From the UHGV virus genome UHGV-0175150: 21,403 nt of DNA; one strand, given 5' to 3'. The notes beneath the pieces were generated by a model. That model saw only the letters and a list, made by a program, of their open reading frames with translations, made no database searches and had not been told where the DNA came from. Positions 3,683 to 17,396 of the stretch are shown piece by piece (the first letter of the stretch is position 1; every line of letters begins with the position of its first letter). The position numbers and the translations under genes were made by a program. Source of the DNA: a virus.

Positions 3683-4142
3683 CCCACTTGCTCACCAGTT
3701 CGCCATTGATATACAGCTCCATCGGGCGGGTGACCGGCTCCGGCGGCGGAGGTTCCGGGATATTCTTCACATGCAGCGCACCGTCAACCTCACTGACCAG
3801 CGTGCGCTCGGTCAGCATCAGGCTGATACTGATATCAAAGCTGCTGTCATTGTTGATGTCTGCATAAAACGTGAAGCCCTTTTTCTGGCCTTCGTCGGTG
3901 GTCATGATGTCGGGCTGATTTTCCCGCAGCCACGCCAGCACCGGCACGATGAGCAGGTCAAAATCACCGGTAAAGTCGGTCACAATGACATTGAGCGTGT
4001 AACGCTTTTCGAATGACAACGACGCCGCCAGTGTGGAGGCAATACTCCCGTTATCCACGAATATCCGCAGCATATCGGGGTTAGTTTTCAGCACCGTGAC
4101 GGCATCAGTCAGCGCCCTGCGCAGGCTGTCGGGTTTGAGCAT
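3675..4142 (-). CDS. R: Tail completion protein gpR
   Basis: 155-aa ORF, same length as P2 gpR; follows the lysis cassette as in P2. Confidence 0.88.
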   Translation of the reverse strand: MLKPDSLRRALTDAVTVLKTNPDMLRIFVDNGSIASTLAASLSFEKRYTLNVIVTDFTGDFDLLIVPVLAWLRENQPDIMTTDEGQKKGFTFYADINNDSSFDISISLMLTERTLVSEVDGALHVKNIPEPPPPEPVTRPMELYINGELVSKWDE

Positions 4143-6088: not shown

Positions 6089-6597
6089 CAGATTTGACTC
6101 ACGATGCAGCGCGGCTTGTCCTGGATACGCGCCACCGCCCAGCGCATATCCCGCCACAGCTCATCAATGGTGCTGTCAATGCTGTCAGCCTTCTTGTCGC
6201 CTTTCGCACTGGCATCCACGCCGCGATAACGCTCATAAAGCGACGCGGTCGCCATCGCACACACGGCGCGCTCGTAGTAAAAAACTTTGATGCTTTCACC
6301 GTCGATATCGTCCGCCGGGACGTCCGCCAGACGCGTAAAACCGGCGGCAATTTTCTGTTCGCGGTACTCGTACAGCTCCGCATTCGTCTCCGCCATGCCT
6401 GACTTGATGGCCTCACGCAGACGGGCGGGGGCGACGGTCTGCTCAAGGCGCATACGTTCCCGGACGCGCTTCGGGTCGATATCGGGGAAAAAGAACGTGT
6501 TTTTAATCACCGGCTCGTCGCCTGCCGGTTGCGGGATGACCACCGTACCCTCACCGGACACGGGAGCCTCCTTTCGCGGAATAATCAGCGTCATCAT
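6088..6597 (-). CDS. L: Capsid completion protein gpL
   Basis: Start taken at ATG 6595..6597 (MMTLIIPRK...) giving 169 aa, the P2 gpL length; the track ORF extends 20 codons further upstream. Confidence 0.85.
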   Translation of the reverse strand: MMTLIIPRKEAPVSGEGTVVIPQPAGDEPVIKNTFFFPDIDPKRVRERMRLEQTVAPARLREAIKSGMAETNAELYEYREQKIAAGFTRLADVPADDIDGESIKVFYYERAVCAMATASLYERYRGVDASAKGDKKADSIDSTIDELWRDMRWAVARIQDKPRCIVSQI

Positions 6598-9430: not shown

Positions 9431-9603
9431 TGTCAGGAGTCCTGAATAGTGATTAGAGGAGTCACATGTCGGCATCAGTTTCCCGACGATGCGCATCCTC
9501 CGCCATCAGTCCCGGATGGCTTATCACTGACACAACAGCACCTTAGCGAATCGCGGGGCGCGACTCAGTAGCCTTGCCGTGTATTCATCACGGCGAGGTA
9601 TTC
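9431..9603. promoter_or_regulatory. Divergent intergenic region between O (leftward) and P (rightward), expected to hold the two Ogr-dependent late promoters
   Basis: 173-bp non-coding gap between divergent late operons; contains a partial dyad (TGTCGG ... CCGACG around 9467..9488). Exact promoter elements not resolved by eye. Confidence 0.4.
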
Positions 9604-11376
9604 ATGACCATCACCACAGACACCACTCTTTTACACGACCCGCGTCGTCAGGCGGCGCTGCTGTACTGGCAGGGGTTTTCCGTGCCGCAGATTGCCGCCA
9701 TGTTGCAGATGAAACGCCCGACGGTGCAGAGCTGGAAACAGCGCGACGGCTGGGACAGCGTTGCCCCCATCAGCCGTGTCGAAATGAGCCTGGAAGCGCG
9801 GCTGACCCAGCTCATCATCAAACCGCAGAAAACCGGCGGTGACTTCAAGGAAATTGACCTGCTGGGACGCCAGATTGAACGACTGGCACGGGTAAACCGC
9901 TACAGCCAGACCGGCAACGAGGCAGACCTTAATCCGAACGTCGCTAACCGCAACAAAGGCGGGCGTCGCAAACCGAAAAAGAATTTTTTCAGTGACGAAG
10001 CCATCGAAAAGCTGGAGCAGATTTTCTTTGAGCAGTCTTTCGACTATCAGTTGCACTGGTATCGCGCCGGGCTTGAGCACCGCATCCGCGATATCCTGAA
10101 ATCCCGCCAGATTGGCGCGACGTTTTATTTTTCCCGCGAGGCACTGCTGCGCGCCCTGAAAACCGGCCATAACCAGATTTTTCTGTCGGCCAGTAAAACG
10201 CAGGCGTATGTGTTCCGTGAATACATCATCGCCTTTGCCCGGCTGGTTGACGTTGACCTGACCGGTGACCCGATTGTCCTGGGCAATAACGGCGCAAAAC
10301 TGATTTTTCTCGGCACCAACTCCAACACCGCGCAGAGCCATAACGGCGACCTGTACGTCGATGAGATTTTCTGGATCCCGAATTTTCAGGTACTGCGTAA
10401 GGTGGCATCAGGTATGGCCTCACAGAGTCACCTGCGTTCGACCTATTTCTCCACCCCGTCCACGCTGGCGCACGACGCCTACCCGTTCTGGTCAGGTGAA
10501 CTGTTCAACCGGGGACGCGCCAGCGCCGCCGAACGCGTGGAAATCGACGTCAGTCATAACGCCCTTGCCGGTGGGCTTCTCTGTGCGGACGGCCAGTGGC
10601 GGCAGATTGTCACCATTGAGGACGCCCTGAAAGGTGGCTGCACGCTGTTCGACATTGAGCAGCTCAAACGTGAAAACAGCGCCGACGATTTTAAAAACCT
10701 GTTCATGTGTGAATTTGTTGACGACAAGGCATCGGTGTTCCCGTTCGAGGAGCTGCAACGCTGCATGGTCGACACGCTGGAAGAATGGGAAGACTATGCG
10801 CCGTTTGCCGCAAATCCGTTCGGCTCCCGCCCGGTATGGATTGGTTACGACCCGTCACACCGTGGCGACAGCGCCGGATGCGTGGTGCTGGCACCGCCGG
10901 TGGTGGCCGGTGGCAAATTCAGAATACTTGAGCGTCACCAGTGGAAAGGCATGGACTTTGCCACTCAGGCTGAATCCATCCGCAAACTCACCGAAAAATA
11001 CAACGTCGAATACATCGGTATTGATGCCACCGGCCTCGGTGTCGGCGTGTTCCAGCTCGTGCGCTCGTTCTATCCCGCCGCGCGCGACATCCGCTACACG
11101 CCGGAAATGAAAACCGCAATGGTGCTCAAGGCAAAAGACGTCATCCGCCGTGGCTGTCTGGAATATGACGTCAGCGCCACCGACATCACCAGCTCGTTTA
11201 TGGCTATCCGCAAGACCATGACCAGCAGCGGACGCAGCGCCACCTATGAGGCCAGCCGCAGCGAGGAAGCCAGCCACGCCGACCTCGCCTGGGCGACCAT
11301 GCACGCCCTGTTAAATGAGCCACTCACCGCCGGTATCAGCACCCCGCTGACATCCACCATTCTGGAGTTTTACTGA
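9604..11376 (+). CDS. P: Terminase large (ATPase) subunit gpP
   Basis: ATG at 9604 preceded by GAGG; 590 aa beginning MTITTDTTLLHDPRRQAALLYWQGF..., matching remembered P2 gpP in sequence and length. Confidence 0.92.
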   Translation: MTITTDTTLLHDPRRQAALLYWQGFSVPQIAAMLQMKRPTVQSWKQRDGWDSVAPISRVEMSLEARLTQLIIKPQKTGGDFKEIDLLGRQIERLARVNRYSQTGNEADLNPNVANRNKGGRRKPKKNFFSDEAIEKLEQIFFEQSFDYQLHWYRAGLEHRIRDILKSRQIGATFYFSREALLRALKTGHNQIFLSASKTQAYVFREYIIAFARLVDVDLTGDPIVLGNNGAKLIFLGTNSNTAQSHNGDLYVDEIFWIPNFQVLRKVASGMASQSHLRSTYFSTPSTLAHDAYPFWSGELFNRGRASAAERVEIDVSHNALAGGLLCADGQWRQIVTIEDALKGGCTLFDIEQLKRENSADDFKNLFMCEFVDDKASVFPFEELQRCMVDTLEEWEDYAPFAANPFGSRPVWIGYDPSHRGDSAGCVVLAPPVVAGGKFRILERHQWKGMDFATQAESIRKLTEKYNVEYIGIDATGLGVGVFQLVRSFYPAARDIRYTPEMKTAMVLKAKDVIRRGCLEYDVSATDITSSFMAIRKTMTSSGRSATYEASRSEEASHADLAWATMHALLNEPLTAGISTPLTSTILEFY

Positions 11377-12410
11377 TGAGCAAGAAAAAAGGGAAAACAC
11401 CGCAACCTGCGGCAAAAAAAATGACCGCCAGCGCCCCGAAAATGGAGGCATTCACCTTTGGTGAGCCGGTGCCGGTACTCGACCGCCGTGACATTCTGGA
11501 TTACGTCGAGTGCATCAGTAACGGCAGATGGTATGAGCCGCCGGTCAGCTTTACCGGTCTGGCGAAAAGCCTGCGTGCTGCCGTGCATCACAGCTCGCCG
11601 ATTTACGTCAAACGCAATATTCTGGCCTCGACATTTATCCCGCATCCGTGGCTTTCCCAGCAGGATTTCAGCCGCTTTGTGCTGGATTTTCTGGTGTTCG
11701 GTAATGCGTTTCTGGAAAAGCGTTACAGCACCACCGGTAAGGTCATCAGACTGGAAACCTCACCGGCAAAATATACCCGCCGTGGTGTGGAAGAGGATGT
11801 TTACTGGTGGGTGCCGTCCTTCAACGAACCGACAGCCTTCACGCCCGGTTCCGTGTTTCACCTGCTGGAGCCGGATATTAATCAGGAGCTGTACGGCCTG
11901 CCGGAATATCTCAGCGCCCTTAACTCTGCCTGGCTGAATGAGTCGGCCACGCTGTTCCGCCGCAAGTATTACGAAAACGGCGCACATGCCGGATACATCA
12001 TGTACGTTACCGATGCCGTGCAGGATCGCAACGATATCGAAATGCTTCGCGAAAACATGGTGAAGTCGAAAGGCCGCAACAACTTTAAAAACCTGTTTCT
12101 CTATGCCCCACAGGGGAAAGCCGACGGCATTAAAATTATCCCGCTCAGTGAAGTGGCGACGAAGGACGATTTTTTTAATATCAAAAAAGCCAGCGCCGCT
12201 GACCTGCTGGACGCACACCGCATCCCCTTTCAGTTGATGGGCGGCAAGCCGGAGAACGTCGGGTCGCTGGGTGATATTGAGAAAGTGGCAAAGGTCTTTG
12301 TCCGCAATGAGCTTATCCCGTTACAGGACAGGATTCGGGAAATAAACGGCTGGCTCGGTCAGGAGGTCATCCGCTTTAAAAACTACTCACTGGACACTGA
12401 CAACGGCTGA
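11376..12410 (+). CDS. Q: Portal protein gpQ
   Basis: 344-aa ORF, same length as P2 gpQ; start overlaps the P stop (TGATG). Confidence 0.92.
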   Translation: MSKKKGKTPQPAAKKMTASAPKMEAFTFGEPVPVLDRRDILDYVECISNGRWYEPPVSFTGLAKSLRAAVHHSSPIYVKRNILASTFIPHPWLSQQDFSRFVLDFLVFGNAFLEKRYSTTGKVIRLETSPAKYTRRGVEEDVYWWVPSFNEPTAFTPGSVFHLLEPDINQELYGLPEYLSALNSAWLNESATLFRRKYYENGAHAGYIMYVTDAVQDRNDIEMLRENMVKSKGRNNFKNLFLYAPQGKADGIKIIPLSEVATKDDFFNIKKASAADLLDAHRIPFQLMGGKPENVGSLGDIEKVAKVFVRNELIPLQDRIREINGWLGQEVIRFKNYSLDTDNG

Positions 12411-12415
12411 ACATC

Positions 12416-12437
12416 GCCGCCTGCGGGCGGCCTTTTT
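12416..12437 (+). terminator. Rho-independent terminator after Q
   Basis: GCCGCC-TGCG-GGCGGC perfect 6-bp stem with 4-nt loop, followed by CTTTTTA, 6 nt after the Q stop. Confidence 0.5.
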
Positions 12438-12578
12438 ACACTCTGTCATCACGCCCTCACACGCTCATCACCGCACAAAAAATCCCGCAGACACACCAAC
12501 CCCCAACGGGCAGACTAAACGCCGTCACGACGCGCTCAGACGCTGAAAAAATAAAATCAGCACCACCGCCAGCGCGCA

Positions 12579-12597
12579 GTGCTTTCCCCGCCTCGCC
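12579..12597. other. cos site (19-nt cohesive end of P2-like phages)
   Basis: GTGCTTTCCCCGCCTCGCC is the reverse complement of GGCGAGGCGGGGAAAGCAC, which I recall as the P2 cohesive end; it lies immediately beyond Q, where cos sits in P2. Confidence 0.55.
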
Positions 12598-12720
12598 CGC
12601 CCGCTTCATGGGGCGGTTTTAATGCAGTTGCACGAACACGCCAGAGGCACACCATCACTGGCAGCGATCAAACACAACAGGGGAGGGATGCGCATGCAAT
12701 TTGATGCTTGTTAATGCGTT

Positions 12721-13383
12721 TTAAAAGTCCATCTCTTTACCATGCATTTCCTTATAATTCTTCCGTATTTCCATTTGCTTTTTATAGCTAATTTTCATAA
12801 TTTCCAAAAGCTCTTTAGGCATCCTTAATTTGTATTGTTTCATTGATGTTTTAACCACAAAGAAACCACTACGAAAACTTGGATTACCATTCTCACTTAA
12901 GCTTTTATAGAACCTCATATTTCCCAGCTTTGCAAAAGGATAGAAGGCAAACTCCCATTTCTCTCCTACTTGGTATAAAGAATACGGCATTTCCTTCCCA
13001 TTTGCTTTTAGTTTGTTTATGTTAAAATGATTATTTACCCCACTAACTTCTAAGCAAAACTCTTGTATATGTACCGGAACGTTCCGCAAATTTACAACCT
13101 CAATATTGGCACAATAATTTTCTTTGTCTACGCTAGGGTAAGGCTTATAGGTTAAACTTAATTTTTCAACATTATTTTGTGATGCTTGGTATGTCGCATA
13201 CAATGAAATAATCACTGCGACTGACGTTGCAATTCCTGAGACCCATCCTCCGATCATTGCTAAATAAGCAACAGCATCTTTATGCTCTGGTTTCGCCCAT
13301 TCAGCCTGAATAGAGCCTAACCATAAACCGAAAGCAAACATACAAATACCAACCAATAAAAAAGAAATTATTTTCCAAAGCAT
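12721..13383 (-). CDS. Hypothetical membrane-anchored protein (two N-terminal TM helices plus ~150-aa soluble domain); AT-rich cargo gene
   Basis: 220-aa ORF with ATG at 13381..13383 and GAGG 8 nt upstream; TM1 about residues 4-23, TM2 about 41-62; composition visibly more AT-rich than the flanking phage genes; no recognisable motif. Confidence 0.7.
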   Translation of the reverse strand: MLWKIISFLLVGICMFAFGLWLGSIQAEWAKPEHKDAVAYLAMIGGWVSGIATSVAVIISLYATYQASQNNVEKLSLTYKPYPSVDKENYCANIEVVNLRNVPVHIQEFCLEVSGVNNHFNINKLKANGKEMPYSLYQVGEKWEFAFYPFAKLGNMRFYKSLSENGNPSFRSGFFVVKTSMKQYKLRMPKELLEIMKISYKKQMEIRKNYKEMHGKEMDF

Positions 13384-13408
13384 TTTATCTGCCTCAAATG
13401 ATTTTAAT

Positions 13409-13477
13409 CTAACGCCTCACGATGCTCTTTGTTTAACCCCGCCAGCACTGAAAACAAGTTTCAGTACTGGCGGCGTT
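13409..13477. repeat. Copy A of a ~69-bp repeat containing an imperfect stem-loop (13435..13477)
   Basis: CTAACGCCTC...CGCCAGCACTGAAA-ACAAG-TTTCAGTACTGGCGGCGTT; about 85% identical to copy B at 14382..14450; lies between the two cargo genes. Confidence 0.7.
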
Positions 13478-13491
13478 TGTCACTATATTGT

Positions 13492-14223
13492 TTAATTGTC
13501 GAGTATCGAATCGACCTCACCCGTTCGCACGTTGACGCGCGCCGCTACGGTCTGCTTTACCACTCCACCATAAGCATTAGTGCCGCGAAACGTGGTTTTC
13601 ACAATAGCGTGCGGGTCTTTATTCAAAACCAAATGATATACCGTTGATACATGTTTATAAGATGAATCATCGTTCATATTCTCTTTAATTAGCTTTTCCA
13701 ATGGTCGATAAGAACCATCCCAACCACTAAAATTACTCTGAAATGTATCAAGGTTGATTTTATTGTTTAGTGATTTCGGATCTTTTTCATAATCATTAAA
13801 GCACCACCCAAGAACATCACCGAGTTTCAACTCATCATCTTTGGTAAAAGTATATTCACTCATGCAAGCATAAAATGCATCTGATGCGGTGACTGGCACT
13901 TCCTTAAAATCAATGTAACTATTCACAATATCGTGTCGAGTTTTCTTTGGCTCGTTCCGATATTCCTTGAGTGTTTTTTCACCATATTCGAATGTTTTTT
14001 GGACTTGGTGTTCTGCAACGGTTGATGTTTCAGTTTTAGCAACTGGCTGGCTTTTTTCTGTTGGATAGAGTATTGAACCAATTATGCTCAATACAAAACC
14101 TCCTCCGAGATAAACCGCACTTGCACGTTTGCGGCTTGGCATTCGCACCAGTGATGGTTTGATTAACCCGATGAAAAAAGCAACGAAAAAAGCGAGTGAT
14201 AGAAAAGCGATTACAGTATCCAT
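13492..14223 (-). CDS. Hypothetical membrane-anchored protein (two N-terminal TM helices plus ~190-aa soluble domain); AT-rich cargo gene
   Basis: Start taken at ATG 14221..14223 (MDTVIAFLSLAFFVAFFIGLI...) with AAGGA 5 nt upstream, giving 243 aa; the track ORF begins 8 codons earlier at a GTG. A strongly basic loop (KPSLVRMPSRKRAS) separates the two TM segments. Body is AT-rich but the last ~120 nt are GC-rich. Confidence 0.7.
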   Translation of the reverse strand: MDTVIAFLSLAFFVAFFIGLIKPSLVRMPSRKRASAVYLGGGFVLSIIGSILYPTEKSQPVAKTETSTVAEHQVQKTFEYGEKTLKEYRNEPKKTRHDIVNSYIDFKEVPVTASDAFYACMSEYTFTKDDELKLGDVLGWCFNDYEKDPKSLNNKINLDTFQSNFSGWDGSYRPLEKLIKENMNDDSSYKHVSTVYHLVLNKDPHAIVKTTFRGTNAYGGVVKQTVAARVNVRTGEVDSILDN

Positions 14224-14381
14224 AGCTATCCTTTTTGCATCATCCACATAAAAAATCGACCTTATGTTAGCAACAGGAAGCTTACTTTTGAATATTTGTA
14301 AGTTGTTAGCTTTAGCTCTCCGAGCTAACTCCTTTCAACCGTCAAAAAACAGCACCAACTCAGTAAAAATATGAATGTCAA

Positions 14382-14450
14382 CTAACGCCTCGCTTCGCTC
14401 GTTGTTCAACGCCGCCAGCCCTGAAAACAAGTTTCACGACTGGCGGCGTT
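14382..14450. repeat. Copy B of the ~69-bp stem-loop repeat
   Basis: CTAACGCCTC...AACGCCGCCAG (perfect 11-bp arm) ...ACAAG... CTGGCGGCGTT; ends 3 nt from the stop of the small ORF at 14453. Confidence 0.7.
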
Positions 14451-14452
14451 CT

Positions 14453-14659
14453 CTATCGTCTGCGTGGTGGTGACGTAACTCTGGATTGACCGATATGGTT
14501 AAACCGCCCGTAATTATCCCGGACTATTTCGGCACACCCGACCAGCTCATCGGGCGTCAGATTTTCGTTGACCATAATCCGCTGTAAACGCTGAACAATA
14601 GCCATCAGCTTGATATTTTTAGTTTTATGGTGCGGTATCTCGCCTGGTATTCTGTGCAT
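14453..14659 (-). CDS. Small hypothetical protein (68 aa), translationally coupled to the upstream ASCH/HExxH gene
   Basis: ATG at 14657..14659 shares 1 nt with the TAA stop of the upstream gene; product MHRIPGEIPHHKTKNIKLMAIVQRL...; no recognisable motif; could be a non-coding overlap. Confidence 0.4.
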   Translation of the reverse strand: MHRIPGEIPHHKTKNIKLMAIVQRLQRIMVNENLTPDELVGCAEIVRDNYGRFNHIGQSRVTSPPRRR

Positions 14660-15111
14660 TATCCAAGCCACCCGTTTTGCTGTGCACGCTCCATCTGTTC
14701 ATCTGAATAGTTCCATGCTCCATCCGTGGCAACCATTGCCCCGCCAGACATCCCCGTCTCTGGTTCATACATAACAGCAAGGCCGAGCTGATGCATAATT
14801 TCATGATTAATTCTGAATACCAGGCCACGCTCACTAAGTTCTTTCCAGTTCACAATCTCATATGCACCTGTATTAAACAGCTCAATACTTAGCAAGACAT
14901 AATCTTCCAGCCAGTCTGACAGGTCAGTAACATCTGTTATCCGGGCTTCAACCTTTCGCCCCGTATACACACCCTGCACCCATTCATGCAAAATCAACGT
15001 GTCCCCGCGCTCATAATTACGGTCATTTTTCCGAAACTCTGCGCGTTTTTTTCCTTCCAGAACAAGGTCAAAATATTTTGCGTGCAGCTTTACCTCGTGA
15101 ATTTTTGCCAT
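14659..15111 (-). CDS. ASCH/DUF3850-like domain protein with a C-terminal HExxH (HEIMH) motif; unknown function
   Basis: ATG at 15109..15111 shares 1 nt with the gpA stop; 150 aa. N-terminal MAKIHEVKLHAKYFDLVLEGKKRAEFRKNDRNYERGDTLILHEW has the signature pattern of DUF3850/ASCH-fold proteins (from memory). C-terminal part has FRINHEIMHQLGLAVMYEPE. Confidence 0.75.
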   Translation of the reverse strand: MAKIHEVKLHAKYFDLVLEGKKRAEFRKNDRNYERGDTLILHEWVQGVYTGRKVEARITDVTDLSDWLEDYVLLSIELFNTGAYEIVNWKELSERGLVFRINHEIMHQLGLAVMYEPETGMSGGAMVATDGAWNYSDEQMERAQQNGWLG

Positions 15112-17396
15112 TATGTCCACTCCATTACTGTTGAGAATCCCGGCCACTCATCAGCGACCGGATACGTGAAGTTTTTCCCGTCATAATTTACGGTTGCCCC
15201 ACGCGCCAGCGCCTCAAGCTCCCATCGCTGCGGCCTGATACCGTTCTGAGCAAGGTCAACGCGGATACGGGTAATTTGCATTCGTTCCGACCGGGTCATT
15301 CTGGCCGATGGCGCCATTTCATGCGGTTTTAACGGGCTTCCGGCTCTTTGCTGACGATTTGGTGTTCTCAGGCCGTGTTTTAATGCGCCCCTGAGCGCCC
15401 TCACGACATCCGGGTCATTCCATTCGATAACACCGTCATCAACCAGATTAAGCACTGCTGCGGCGTGCTCAGAAGGTGTGGGAGCCGGTAACGAAGTATC
15501 ACCACCGGTGAGCTTTCCACAGTTATTGACAGGACTCCGAGGCGCGGCGATGCCGCTTTTTAAAGTCAAAGGCTCAACGACAGGAACTTTCGGAACAATG
15601 CGCCAGTCCGTGGTTCTGGTGATATGAATATGACGCGCGCCGAGATGCGGCGCGTAAATGCCGACCACTCTCTCGACTTCTTCCTCATACTCGTTAACGT
15701 CATCCGACGGGCTACGGGCAACCCTGACAGTCTGACAATCGCGCGGGACATTTGCCCCACCCTGCGCGCTGATATACAACGCAAAATCACCACTGTCTGC
15801 GGCGGCGCGTGCAGCCTCGACGCGTTCGTCAAACTCATCAGCAATGCTGACGCCACGAGGCAATTTGCGTAGTTCACGGTAAGCCCCCATTGTCGGCAGA
15901 CCAACCGTTTTAAATTGCGGGATACGCCACGTTGACGCCCATGCGGTAACAGCCGCTGCAGTGTCTTTCAGCGGCCTGCCGGTATCGTTATCGAGCTGAT
16001 CATCCAGTGCATAGCCGTCGATGTTTTTTGAAATGTATTTCGCGATATATCCCGCTGCACCGCCCCGGTTAAGGTGTTTTGCCTGAAAACGGTTTCGCGC
16101 GGCTCCTCTTTCGTCGCCATCCTCTTTGAGCGCATAGCGACGCATGATTTCGATAATCTGGTTACGCTGGCGTGGATTACAAAAAAGCATCATATGCCAG
16201 TGCGGCGTTCCGTCGTGGTGTGGCTCAACAACACGCAAACCATAAGCCTGTAAATCATTATCCTTGAATGCCGTGCGCATCAGGCTCCAGATACGGCAGA
16301 GATAACGCTGCGCATCCTTTGGATTAAATGCCTCATCATTCCAGCCGTGATTAAGCTTGACGGTTTTACTTTCGCCTTTTCCGACCTGACGTGTCGGGTG
16401 ATACTTTGACGGCGCGGTCAGCGTGATAAACATCCCCACATCACCCTCTGCGGCGGCGTAACGCTCAATTCCGGCGATGGTGTTCATCAGCTCCATCCGG
16501 CGAATTTCAGGATTAGAAATACTGCCCATCACCTTACTGATAAGGTCGATGCGTTCGCCGGTTTCCCTGTTTTCAAGGTCACACGATTTAAGAAATTCCA
16601 GATTTGCCTGGCGGCGCGCACGCACATCACGAATGGCATGTTTACTGGCATAAGGAGAACGGTCTTTATTGACCTCCCCGACAGCAATCAGTAACGCCTC
16701 ATGCCAGCGCATACGCTGGCCTTTAAGCTGATGAGTCCACCACTCATCGTTAAACAGACGGGCAATGGCAGAATATGCCTGCCTCGTGGTCATCTGCCCT
16801 TTACGGTATTTTTTCCAGTAGAGCGGGGAAATATTGAAAGCACGTGCAGCGCCAGCAACATGACCATACAGGTGAGCCTGCGCCTCATCCGTAAACAGCG
16901 ATTCTTTCTCGCCATGCGCATCCACCCAGGCATCGCAGAGTTCCTCATACATCATGAAAAGCTGTGATGAGATACGGGCGGCAAACTTTTTCAGCTCCTT
17001 GTCATTCATCCCCGGCAGGCGCGCATACTGGTCGCGCTCTGCCAGAAACAGCAACGACGCGTCGGTGTTCATTTCATGGCGCTGATTCACACGCTCAATG
17101 CGCGGCCATAAACGACGCTGAAAAGTGGATGTGAGGAAATAAAACCCGTGCACCGGGCTTTTATTGCGCCGGATGTAGTCATAGCGTGAAGTAAACAGCG
17201 AGCGCAAAAAATAAGGCAGGCGGTTAATCGTGGATAAAACACCTTGCACCTGACGCATCTCGTCACGTGTAAGAGGTCTTTCGCGCCCGACAGCCTCGCG
17301 TGGCGCGTTCCATGCATAAGCACCGGTAAACGCCTTACCGGTGCCTGCGGTAAATGCTGACGGAGGGACAAAACGCCCGGAGGCTTTAACGGCCAT
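15111..17396 (-). CDS. A: Replication initiation protein gpA (rolling-circle nickase)
   Basis: Start taken at ATG 17394..17396 (MAVKASGRFVPPSAF...) giving 761 aa, the P2 gpA length; the track ORF begins 14 codons upstream at a TTG. Confidence 0.92.
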   Translation of the reverse strand: MAVKASGRFVPPSAFTAGTGKAFTGAYAWNAPREAVGRERPLTRDEMRQVQGVLSTINRLPYFLRSLFTSRYDYIRRNKSPVHGFYFLTSTFQRRLWPRIERVNQRHEMNTDASLLFLAERDQYARLPGMNDKELKKFAARISSQLFMMYEELCDAWVDAHGEKESLFTDEAQAHLYGHVAGAARAFNISPLYWKKYRKGQMTTRQAYSAIARLFNDEWWTHQLKGQRMRWHEALLIAVGEVNKDRSPYASKHAIRDVRARRQANLEFLKSCDLENRETGERIDLISKVMGSISNPEIRRMELMNTIAGIERYAAAEGDVGMFITLTAPSKYHPTRQVGKGESKTVKLNHGWNDEAFNPKDAQRYLCRIWSLMRTAFKDNDLQAYGLRVVEPHHDGTPHWHMMLFCNPRQRNQIIEIMRRYALKEDGDERGAARNRFQAKHLNRGGAAGYIAKYISKNIDGYALDDQLDNDTGRPLKDTAAAVTAWASTWRIPQFKTVGLPTMGAYRELRKLPRGVSIADEFDERVEAARAAADSGDFALYISAQGGANVPRDCQTVRVARSPSDDVNEYEEEVERVVGIYAPHLGARHIHITRTTDWRIVPKVPVVEPLTLKSGIAAPRSPVNNCGKLTGGDTSLPAPTPSEHAAAVLNLVDDGVIEWNDPDVVRALRGALKHGLRTPNRQQRAGSPLKPHEMAPSARMTRSERMQITRIRVDLAQNGIRPQRWELEALARGATVNYDGKNFTYPVADEWPGFSTVMEWT

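Follow-up and report, generated by a model that had tools for sequence, protein, structure and literature searches.

A conserved hairpin-and-tail element at the edge of the variable region in P2/186-like phages: a candidate intercistronic RNA module and recombination joint

The RNase III hairpins of the T7 early region and the sib-type retroregulators of lambda share a layout in which a stop codon is followed by a long irregular hairpin, a leader with a Shine-Dalgarno (SD) sequence and the next gene, while lambdoid module linkers and the host REP/BIME repeats are short gene-end sequences or hairpins that may stabilise mRNA and anchor recombination. T4-type phages carry many copies per genome of the promoter-early stem-loop (PeSL), a terminator combined with an early promoter (PMC2839356, PMC4122927), and the SAS/ESAS sequences of Cluster K mycobacteriophages comprise a 17-bp inverted repeat and an SAS placed directly before the start codons of many genes per genome (PMC3203893). 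Here we describe a 69-nt element, a hairpin followed by a single-stranded tail, that occurs twice in UHGV virus genome UHGV-0175150, a stretch of 21,403 nt (hereafter, the window) which is a P2-like prophage in an orientation inverted relative to the P2 map. Both repeats lie within the variable tin/old-type ("TO") region, between replication gene A and cos. Anti-phage defence genes of P2-like prophages have their main hotspot in the interval that runs from gpA to the portal gene (PMC9122126), and a large hotspot survey that also covers this region leaves the mechanism of cargo swapping open (PMC13586616). We favour, with moderate confidence, the reading that the element is a conserved cis-acting intercistronic RNA module of P2/186-like phages that would double as a joint for homologous recombination.

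The two copies of a stem-loop repeat put forward in the original prediction are real. The longest repeat of the window by far is a direct repeat (D1, 13398-13477 and 14371-14450; 80 nt, 83% identity), which a profile built from relatives trimmed to 69-nt units at 13409-13477 and 14382-14450, identical at 59 of 69 positions (39/43 in the hairpin and 20/26 in the tail). Both units start, as had been proposed, with CTAACGCCTC on the plus strand, and they have a 19-bp stem enclosing a 5-nt loop. Copy A (14382-14450, minus strand; RNA sense AAC...GUUAG), proximal to the early operon, was matched by nhmmer over its whole length (1-69/69, E 1.7e-19) and scored 89.5 bits with the covariance model; its hairpin (14408-14450, minus strand; -38.8 kcal/mol, z -4.89) is followed by a single-stranded tail, GAACAACGAGC-GAA-GCGAGGCGUUAG (14382-14407, minus strand), that is the exact family consensus and whose SD-like GAGG corresponds to plus-strand CCTC at 14388-14391. 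Copy B (13409-13477, minus strand; nhmmer E 5.7e-19, covariance model 83.4 bits) lies behind the Orf97-like gene, with a hairpin at 13435-13477 (minus strand; -32.4 kcal/mol, z -4.80; inverted-repeat arm I1) and a tail that departs from the consensus at 3 positions (GUUAAACAAAGAGC, GUGAGG). When both copies were folded as minus-strand RNA, none of 200 shuffles was equally stable. The proximity to upstream stop codons also holds: copy A lies 2 nt past the TAG of the gene at 14453-14671, and between the TAA of the Orf97-like gene and copy B there are 14 nt that include an in-frame TAG and TGA. On the transcript the hairpin is followed by GUUGAACAACG, which contains no U-tract; neither copy has a T-run, and a terminator scan of 12300-15200 flagged four other terminator-like sites and neither copy, which agrees with the earlier view that these are not simple terminators.

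The degenerate third copy proposed at 12633-12662, by contrast, did not hold up. It folds like its shuffles (z -1.05 and -0.55), was matched neither by nhmmer with --max at E≤100 nor by the covariance model with filters off at E≤10, and lies in or at the edge of a cos-flanking segment that is common to other P2-like phages and 186 (window 12599-12699 is similar to 186 2-102). There is no element behind the last cargo gene, at 12721-13383.

Aligned in gene-sense orientation, 103 non-redundant copies give a consensus that reads stop codon, NN, AAC, g, 15 variable stem pairs, the loop CUNGY, the returning stem, g, GUU, GAACAACGAGC, NNN and GCGAGGCGUUAG. The length of the stem is fixed at 19 bp while its sequence drifts: 90.2% of stem cells are paired and 14 of the 19 pairs are compensated, a result matched by 0 of 500 shuffles, whereas slid controls reached at most 46%. 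RNAalifold independently recovered the hairpin, with 12 of 13 core pairs compensated, and left the tail unpaired. The AAC/GUU base of the stem is invariant, and at the fourth pair, counted from that base, 60 of the 103 copies have a conserved G.G mismatch. Wobbles are one-sided: the gene-sense strand has 188 G.U cells compared with 34 A.C cells (about 5.6:1), the latter being would-be wobbles on the opposite strand, and the sense (minus) strand is the more stable one in 50 of 52 unique sequences (mean -30.6 versus -21.8 kcal/mol). The wobble asymmetry, taken with the better folding of the sense strand, points to a structure selected on the transcript or, with lower likelihood, on the corresponding single strand of DNA. 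The suggestion that these are structured intercistronic RNA sites is therefore supported by the covariation that had been named as its check, by the strand asymmetry and by the geometry of stop codon, SD sequence and start. A three-way junction, with a second helix formed by columns 45-50 and 59-66, was rejected (70.8% paired versus 69.1% in shuffles).

The 26-nt tail is nearly invariant (1.6-1.8 bits per position), while the 3-nt spacer within it and the outer flanks carry about 0.1 bits; where the tail ends, information falls from 2.0 bits to 0.1, and the edges of the element are therefore sharp. We considered a helix, AACGCC:GGCGUU, that would mask the SD sequence until opened by a terminating ribosome, but its mean ensemble probability is 0.04, and SD accessibility was 0.48 in the free element versus 0.47 with a simulated ribosome (p = 0.92); this helix is beyond the reach of covariation because the tail is invariant. 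A role of the tail as antisense partner was also discarded, as no site in 186, P4 or the window beats shuffled tails, its own antisense strand aside. In about 10% of copies (alignment A1, columns 57-71), a perfect small palindrome, AACTCGC-NNN-GCGAGG, replaces AACGAGC-NNN-GCGAGG; this variant looks like quasi-palindrome correction by template switching.

By blastn the unit was found in 64 phage records, which include P2-type phages, 186, Wphi, PSP3 and phages of Yersinia, Klebsiella, Salmonella and Erwinia, mostly in one copy. It is carried by 507 of 5426 complete E. coli genomes (~9%), at a median of 1 and a maximum of 2 places, and has matches in 18 plasmids, of which the two inspected both proved to be P2-like prophages within plasmids. 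For an unbiased sample, 160 P2-like loci were gathered via the portal protein regardless of the element, 151 of them with a complete portal-to-gpA interval; the element is present in 37 of these 151 (17/77 from diverse genera and 20/74 E. coli-like), and its absence from the P2 reference and the remaining element-less loci was confirmed with the covariance model. Being absent from three quarters of P2-like phages, P2 included, the element is dispensable. Pattern scans contributed about 330 more loci. Among 248 element-bearing P2/186-like loci that were fetched, 235 have one copy, 13 (5%) have two and none has more, and in every locus that includes gpA and portal the element is placed between these markers in a constant relative orientation. 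A scan of metagenomes with the tail only gave the full element in 115 of 120 loci and P2 markers in 63 of the 66 with enough flank; one marker-less locus that we examined is a decayed prophage remnant. This confinement to P2-like loci, at a fixed position and in a fixed orientation, means that the element is neither a host repeat nor a random hairpin, and a REP-type origin, which had been raised as a possible refutation, is contradicted by its count of at most two places in an E. coli genome, each of them within a P2-like prophage. The same counts speak against one element per cassette, as 235 of 248 loci are single-copy and about three quarters of P2-like phages have none.

Two kinds of atypical locus were seen in these searches. 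In an IncC plasmid (L372, NZ_CP104682.1), a P2-like prophage has an element truncated within the hairpin and adjoining a convergent reverse-transcriptase gene; about 14 similar plasmids (67-216 kb) share this partial match, which in five such records stands at 2637-2691 from the record start, as it does in L372, whose record begins at the gpA gene. In another locus (L456, 4600-7000), the stretch separating aroF-tyrA from pheA holds the element, cargo genes and an integrase fragment and looks like a decayed P2-like remnant retaining element and cargo.

The open reading frames (ORFs) that end at the element belong to at least seven unrelated families, namely DinI/Tum-like (158), orf72-like (34), Orf97-like (10) and four more, gpA itself among them. 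In 154 of 210 instances, which include both large families (DinI/Tum-like and orf72-like), exactly 2 nt separate the stop codon from AAC, and the orf72-like gene has this 2-nt gap in 29 of its 34 instances. On the other side, 49 instances have an ORF of 40 aa or more that begins within 0-12 nt of GUUAG, and in 40 instances an ORF of this size begins at +2/+3. Those beginning at 0-12 nt make up six families, three of which abut the tail at +1 to +3: the 85-aa phrog_2100 family, a putative UmuD-like family (a reading of its N-terminus; it has no Pfam hit) and a 219-aa family. In the abutting genes the GAGG of the tail stands 8 nt before the ATG, which is an SD distance. Within the window, copy B is followed after 25 nt by the 220-aa gene, which has its own SD sequence, and copy A after 158 nt by the Orf97-like gene; the scan found no promoter-like site between copy A and the latter. 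Because genes without a predicted promoter start close downstream, transcription must as a rule continue across the element. The 186 annotation has terminator t95b about 23 nt beyond it, and a canonical terminator, or a hairpin with a T-run, stands 22-24 nt after the tail in 186-type and other lineages (ACCGG..CCGGTTTTTTT; AAGACTGTATA..TACAGTCTTTTTTT).

Several regulatory-like sites lie near the element. A sigma-70-like sequence, TCGATA-16-TATAGT, is present at 13482-13509 (minus strand), inside the 3' end of the Orf97-like gene; transcripts from it would begin at about the first base of copy B, and its -10 is absent from 186. A palindrome of the LexA-box type follows the element by about 24-27 nt in L268 (perfect, CTGTATATATATACAG) and, as near variants, in L258, L260, L351 and L016; in most of these five loci it is also a hairpin with a T-run, and it is followed by an SD sequence of its own and the 85-aa phrog_2100 gene, which elsewhere abuts the tail directly. 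The 186 record (L374) states at tR1 (24384-24412) that several early lytic operon terminators are anti-terminated in early lytic growth, and names neither a factor nor a site for this.

Comparison with close relatives shows where homology breaks. Two loci (L005 and L125) match the window at 97-98% identity over the stretch that extends from gene A to 14381/14380, the left edge of copy A, and are unrelated beyond it. Three others (L148, L122 and L162) have the small gene, copy A and the Orf97-like gene in common with the window; neither copy B nor the 220-aa gene is present in them. The alignment to L148 runs as far as 13494, where the Orf97-like gene ends, and those to L122 and L162 as far as 13535. 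A block homologous to 186 orf97 plus element spans 13409-14273 (minus strand; blastn 77.6% over 869 nt), and the rest of 12300-14800 does not align with 186, the cos flank and the elements themselves excepted. Copy B was likely brought in by an imported 186-type block of orf97 and element, joined behind a resident small gene and element. Downstream flanks form 47 clusters in all, to 21, 13 and 6 of which the three largest upstream families are joined, and several clusters are joined to more than one upstream family. The cassette-boundary idea in the original prediction is thus half right: the element does mark the edge of variable cargo, with homology stopping at 14381 and many downstream flank types, but it does so without flanking each cassette. 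To judge from these alignments, the pattern is that expected of a conserved joint for module recombination and not of a repeat bounding every cassette.

Two-copy loci are of three types: those in which a small orf72-like gene lies between copies about 405 nt apart, the window type, and one inverted pair. The first type is represented by PSP3 and about 10 fetched loci; in PSP3 (L376) the copies are unannotated (609-677 and 1014-1078), and the order is tumB, element, orf37, element, orf38. The inverted pair, in L320, consists of elements at 3860-3928 (plus strand) and 6239-6307 (minus strand), 2.3 kb apart and each followed by the 85-aa gene; the pair may reflect a chimeric assembly or a tail-to-tail layout.

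As we envision it, the module begins about 2 nt past the stop codon of the gene that closes the rightward early or SOS operon, and would act on the gene-sense transcript. The hairpin would cap or process the upstream message, serving as a barrier to 3' exonucleases or as an RNase III-type site; the roughly two turns of irregular double-stranded RNA that typify such a site are indeed present between the stop codon and the next gene. The leader with its GAGG would then offer a ready translation-initiation region to whichever gene comes next, and the element, being read through by transcription, would punctuate a polycistronic mRNA. At the DNA level, the near-invariant sequence would anchor homologous recombination at the gpA-proximal edge of the hotspot and allow the downstream accessory genes, mostly of the defence type, to be swapped; its near-identity in divergent phages and its position at the edge of the variable region suggest such a joint for homologous swapping.

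Several points weigh against this reading. A gene abuts the tail in about 15-19% of instances and in only 1 of the 37 distinct elements of the unbiased sample, and tails without an abutting gene average about 2.2 mismatches per 26 positions, 14 of 36 in the unbiased sample being perfect. Since the tail is conserved where no gene abuts, SD use cannot account for its invariance; a constraint beyond SD use acts on the tail, and an intercistronic module as described leaves the invariance of the whole tail unexplained. The predicted accessibility of the SD sequence is about 0.5. The strand bias is no strict proof of RNA, as G.T wobbles occur in single-stranded DNA too, and three quarters of P2-like phages manage without the element. 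Its conservation, structure, strand, geometry and homology breakpoints are demonstrated; its effects on processing, stability and translation are all predicted, as is recombination within it, which is deduced from the breakpoints.

Alternatively, one could envision a site-specific recombination site, such as an integron attC, at which a recombinase would read the folded single strand and exchange units of gene plus element. The hairpin keeps its shape while its sequence drifts, its invariant AAC/GUU base has an unpaired G.G next to it, and GUUGAAC fits the integron core consensus GTTRRRY; the element also stands directly after stop codons in a single orientation, single genes have a copy on either side in PSP3 and in about ten of the fetched two-copy loci, and upstream and downstream partners are freely combined. 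However, the near-universal single-copy state, with never more than two copies and no arrays, is not that of cassettes, and homology and information persist through the tail and drop after GTTAG rather than at G|TT of the stem base. The invariant 26-nt tail has no counterpart in attC sites, no attC L boxes are recognisable in the element, no dedicated recombinase and no integron integrase was seen, though no systematic search was made, the neighbours are ordinary P2/186 genes, and the use of the tail as a ribosome-binding site by abutting genes fits an RNA function; we thus consider such a site unlikely. The invariance of the tail even without an abutting gene could instead reflect the seed of a trans-acting small RNA derived from a 3' untranslated region, composed of a 5' hairpin, the seed and a terminator and directed at a conserved host or competitor transcript. 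The unrelated terminators, or hairpins with T-runs, 22-24 nt past the tail in 186-type and other lineages would supply its end, and tum, of an upstream gene family, is the most abundant transcript of the BTP5 prophage, with post-transcriptional control suspected (PMC7067206). This origin appears doubtful nonetheless, because pairing of the tail blocks within 186, P4 and the rest of the window does not exceed that of shuffles, except for block 1 with its own antisense strand, because a gene rather than a terminator comes next in the window and many other loci, and because Rfam has no such family.

That the element is itself a leaky or bidirectional terminator closing the early or SOS operon would suit a long GC-rich hairpin directly after the last operon gene, and on the plus strand the stem is followed by GTTTGT or GTTCTC; yet the sense strand has no U-tract, the scan flags nothing, genes without a predicted promoter start 2-25 nt downstream, the 186 annotation puts the real terminator, t95b, 23 nt further on, and A.C mismatches weaken plus-strand folding, so that we regard this as improbable. 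We find it very hard to credit that the tail loads RfaH (at an ops/JUMPStart-like site) or another elongation factor onto RNA polymerase before AT-rich cargo. On the non-template strand the tail closes with GGCGTTAG, which matches the ops core GGCGGTAG at 7 of 8 positions, and the exact GGCGGTAG occurs in 2 of 103 sequences (L013 and L053), but the consensus has T where ops has G5, and the three columns after GTTAG (ops 9-11) carry 0.0-0.1 bits, with T11-G12 absent and no conserved TG at 11-12; in ops, G5A abolishes RfaH recruitment and T11-G12 induces the pause (PMC5995543). Scarcely more credible is a single-stranded-DNA signal for rolling-circle replication, be it for lagging-strand priming or as a secondary gpA site: the structure is strand-specific, lies 1-2 kb from the gpA nick site and has the 7-mer CGCCTCG in common with the P2 ori, but it is absent from 75% of P2-like phages, P2 included, the 7-mer is on the opposite strand and not in the 186 ori, and the tail does not co-vary with ori type. 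Other identities were rejected as well. A sigma-70 promoter in the tail (TTGAAC-17-GTTAGN) has no usable -10 and is not flagged by the scan; by eye, a LexA site (CTG-N11-CAG) is one base too long, and sigma-54, sigma-E, Chi-like GCTGGCGG, boxA and Tus-Ter sites have the wrong spacing or a part that is not conserved.

A bolder possibility, to which we give a low but not negligible likelihood, is that the element is a structure-specific capture site for promoterless genes behind an early or SOS operon, or the source of a trans-acting RNA with a 26-nt seed. Either would, if true, explain the invariance of the tail where no gene abuts, as well as the patchy occurrence of the element among phages that are nearly identical and its conservation across distant ones, and the capture site would amount to a minimal phage "cassette" system.

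In the window, the terminase and portal genes are at 9574-12410 (plus strand), and the 19-mer of the cos cohesive end, at 12579-12597 near the other, conserved edge of the variable region, is the exact reverse complement of the annotated P2 cosR 19-mer. From cos, the minus-strand genes are, in order, the 220-aa last cargo gene (phrog_16957, 12721-13383), the Orf97-like cargo gene (phrog_3403, 13492-14223; 79% aa identity to 186 Orf97 by tblastn), which has one element copy on either side, the small conserved orf72-like gene (phrog_11386, 14453-14671; RefSeq CDS 14453-14659), a DUF3850/ASCH gene and replication gene A. Terminator-like hairpins with T-runs stand on either side of the cos 19-mer (12560-12575, minus strand; 12597-12616, plus strand), and minus-strand cargo transcripts would traverse cos before meeting the one at 12560-12575. 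In a common relative of the Klebsiella/Salmonella type (L167, 7997-10032), the portal-cos interval holds a retron-type reverse transcriptase and a 303-aa partner, on the opposite side of cos from the element.

The element appears to have gone unmarked. Rfam 15 gave no match at the gathering score in the whole window and, at E≤10, only chance-level matches elsewhere in 12400-14800; the GenBank annotations of 186 and PSP3 do not mark it, and the 2022 and 2026 hotspot papers do not mention it and settle no mechanism of exchange, although the older P2 literature may describe it. PMC8987985 places the "inverted repeats enabling site-specific recombination" of Nilsson et al. 2004 at the other variable locus, Z/fun. 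The general idea that regulatory linker motifs mediate modular shuffling is already known, and the element is not essential to the phage. Even so, as an RNA motif it is new, well supported and backed by strong covariation, and about 9% of complete E. coli genomes carry it; it provides a precise landmark for delimiting the cargo region, and, by standing at one edge of the hotspot in a quarter of P2-like phages, it is a candidate anchor for homologous exchange.

Set beside the known systems, the element shares features with several. REP/BIME repeats occur as hundreds of dispersed copies per host genome, in contrast to the one or two places, in P2-like prophages only, found here. Integron attC sites are likewise imperfect hairpins with an AAC/GTT base that lie directly after an ORF in a single orientation, but the element forms no arrays, lacks the R''/L''-L'/R' box architecture, has its breakpoints elsewhere and carries an invariant tail. 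PeSL are also short conserved intergenic stem-loops at the borders of variable genes, those of hyperplastic regions, and points where otherwise unrelated sequences undergo homologous exchange; the element differs from them in having no sigma-70 promoter or T-run, in its one or two copies at one fixed locus and in its leader with an SD sequence. Like SAS/ESAS, it consists of an inverted repeat followed by a conserved sequence with a ribosome-binding region, but it occupies one locus, shows covariation of the RNA type, keeps a fixed distance to the stop codon and mostly has no abutting start: a SAS-like start at +2/+3 is seen in 40 of 258 instances, and neither in the window nor in 36 of the 37 elements of the unbiased sample. 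The element therefore resembles PeSL and ESAS/SAS in part and has the defining features of neither. With the RNase III hairpins of T7 and the sib-type hairpins of lambda it has no sequence similarity, its 26-nt tail is without counterpart there, and its cleavage is predicted only; what it shares with them is the intercistronic layout on a polycistronic phage mRNA and a strictly conserved length of stem.

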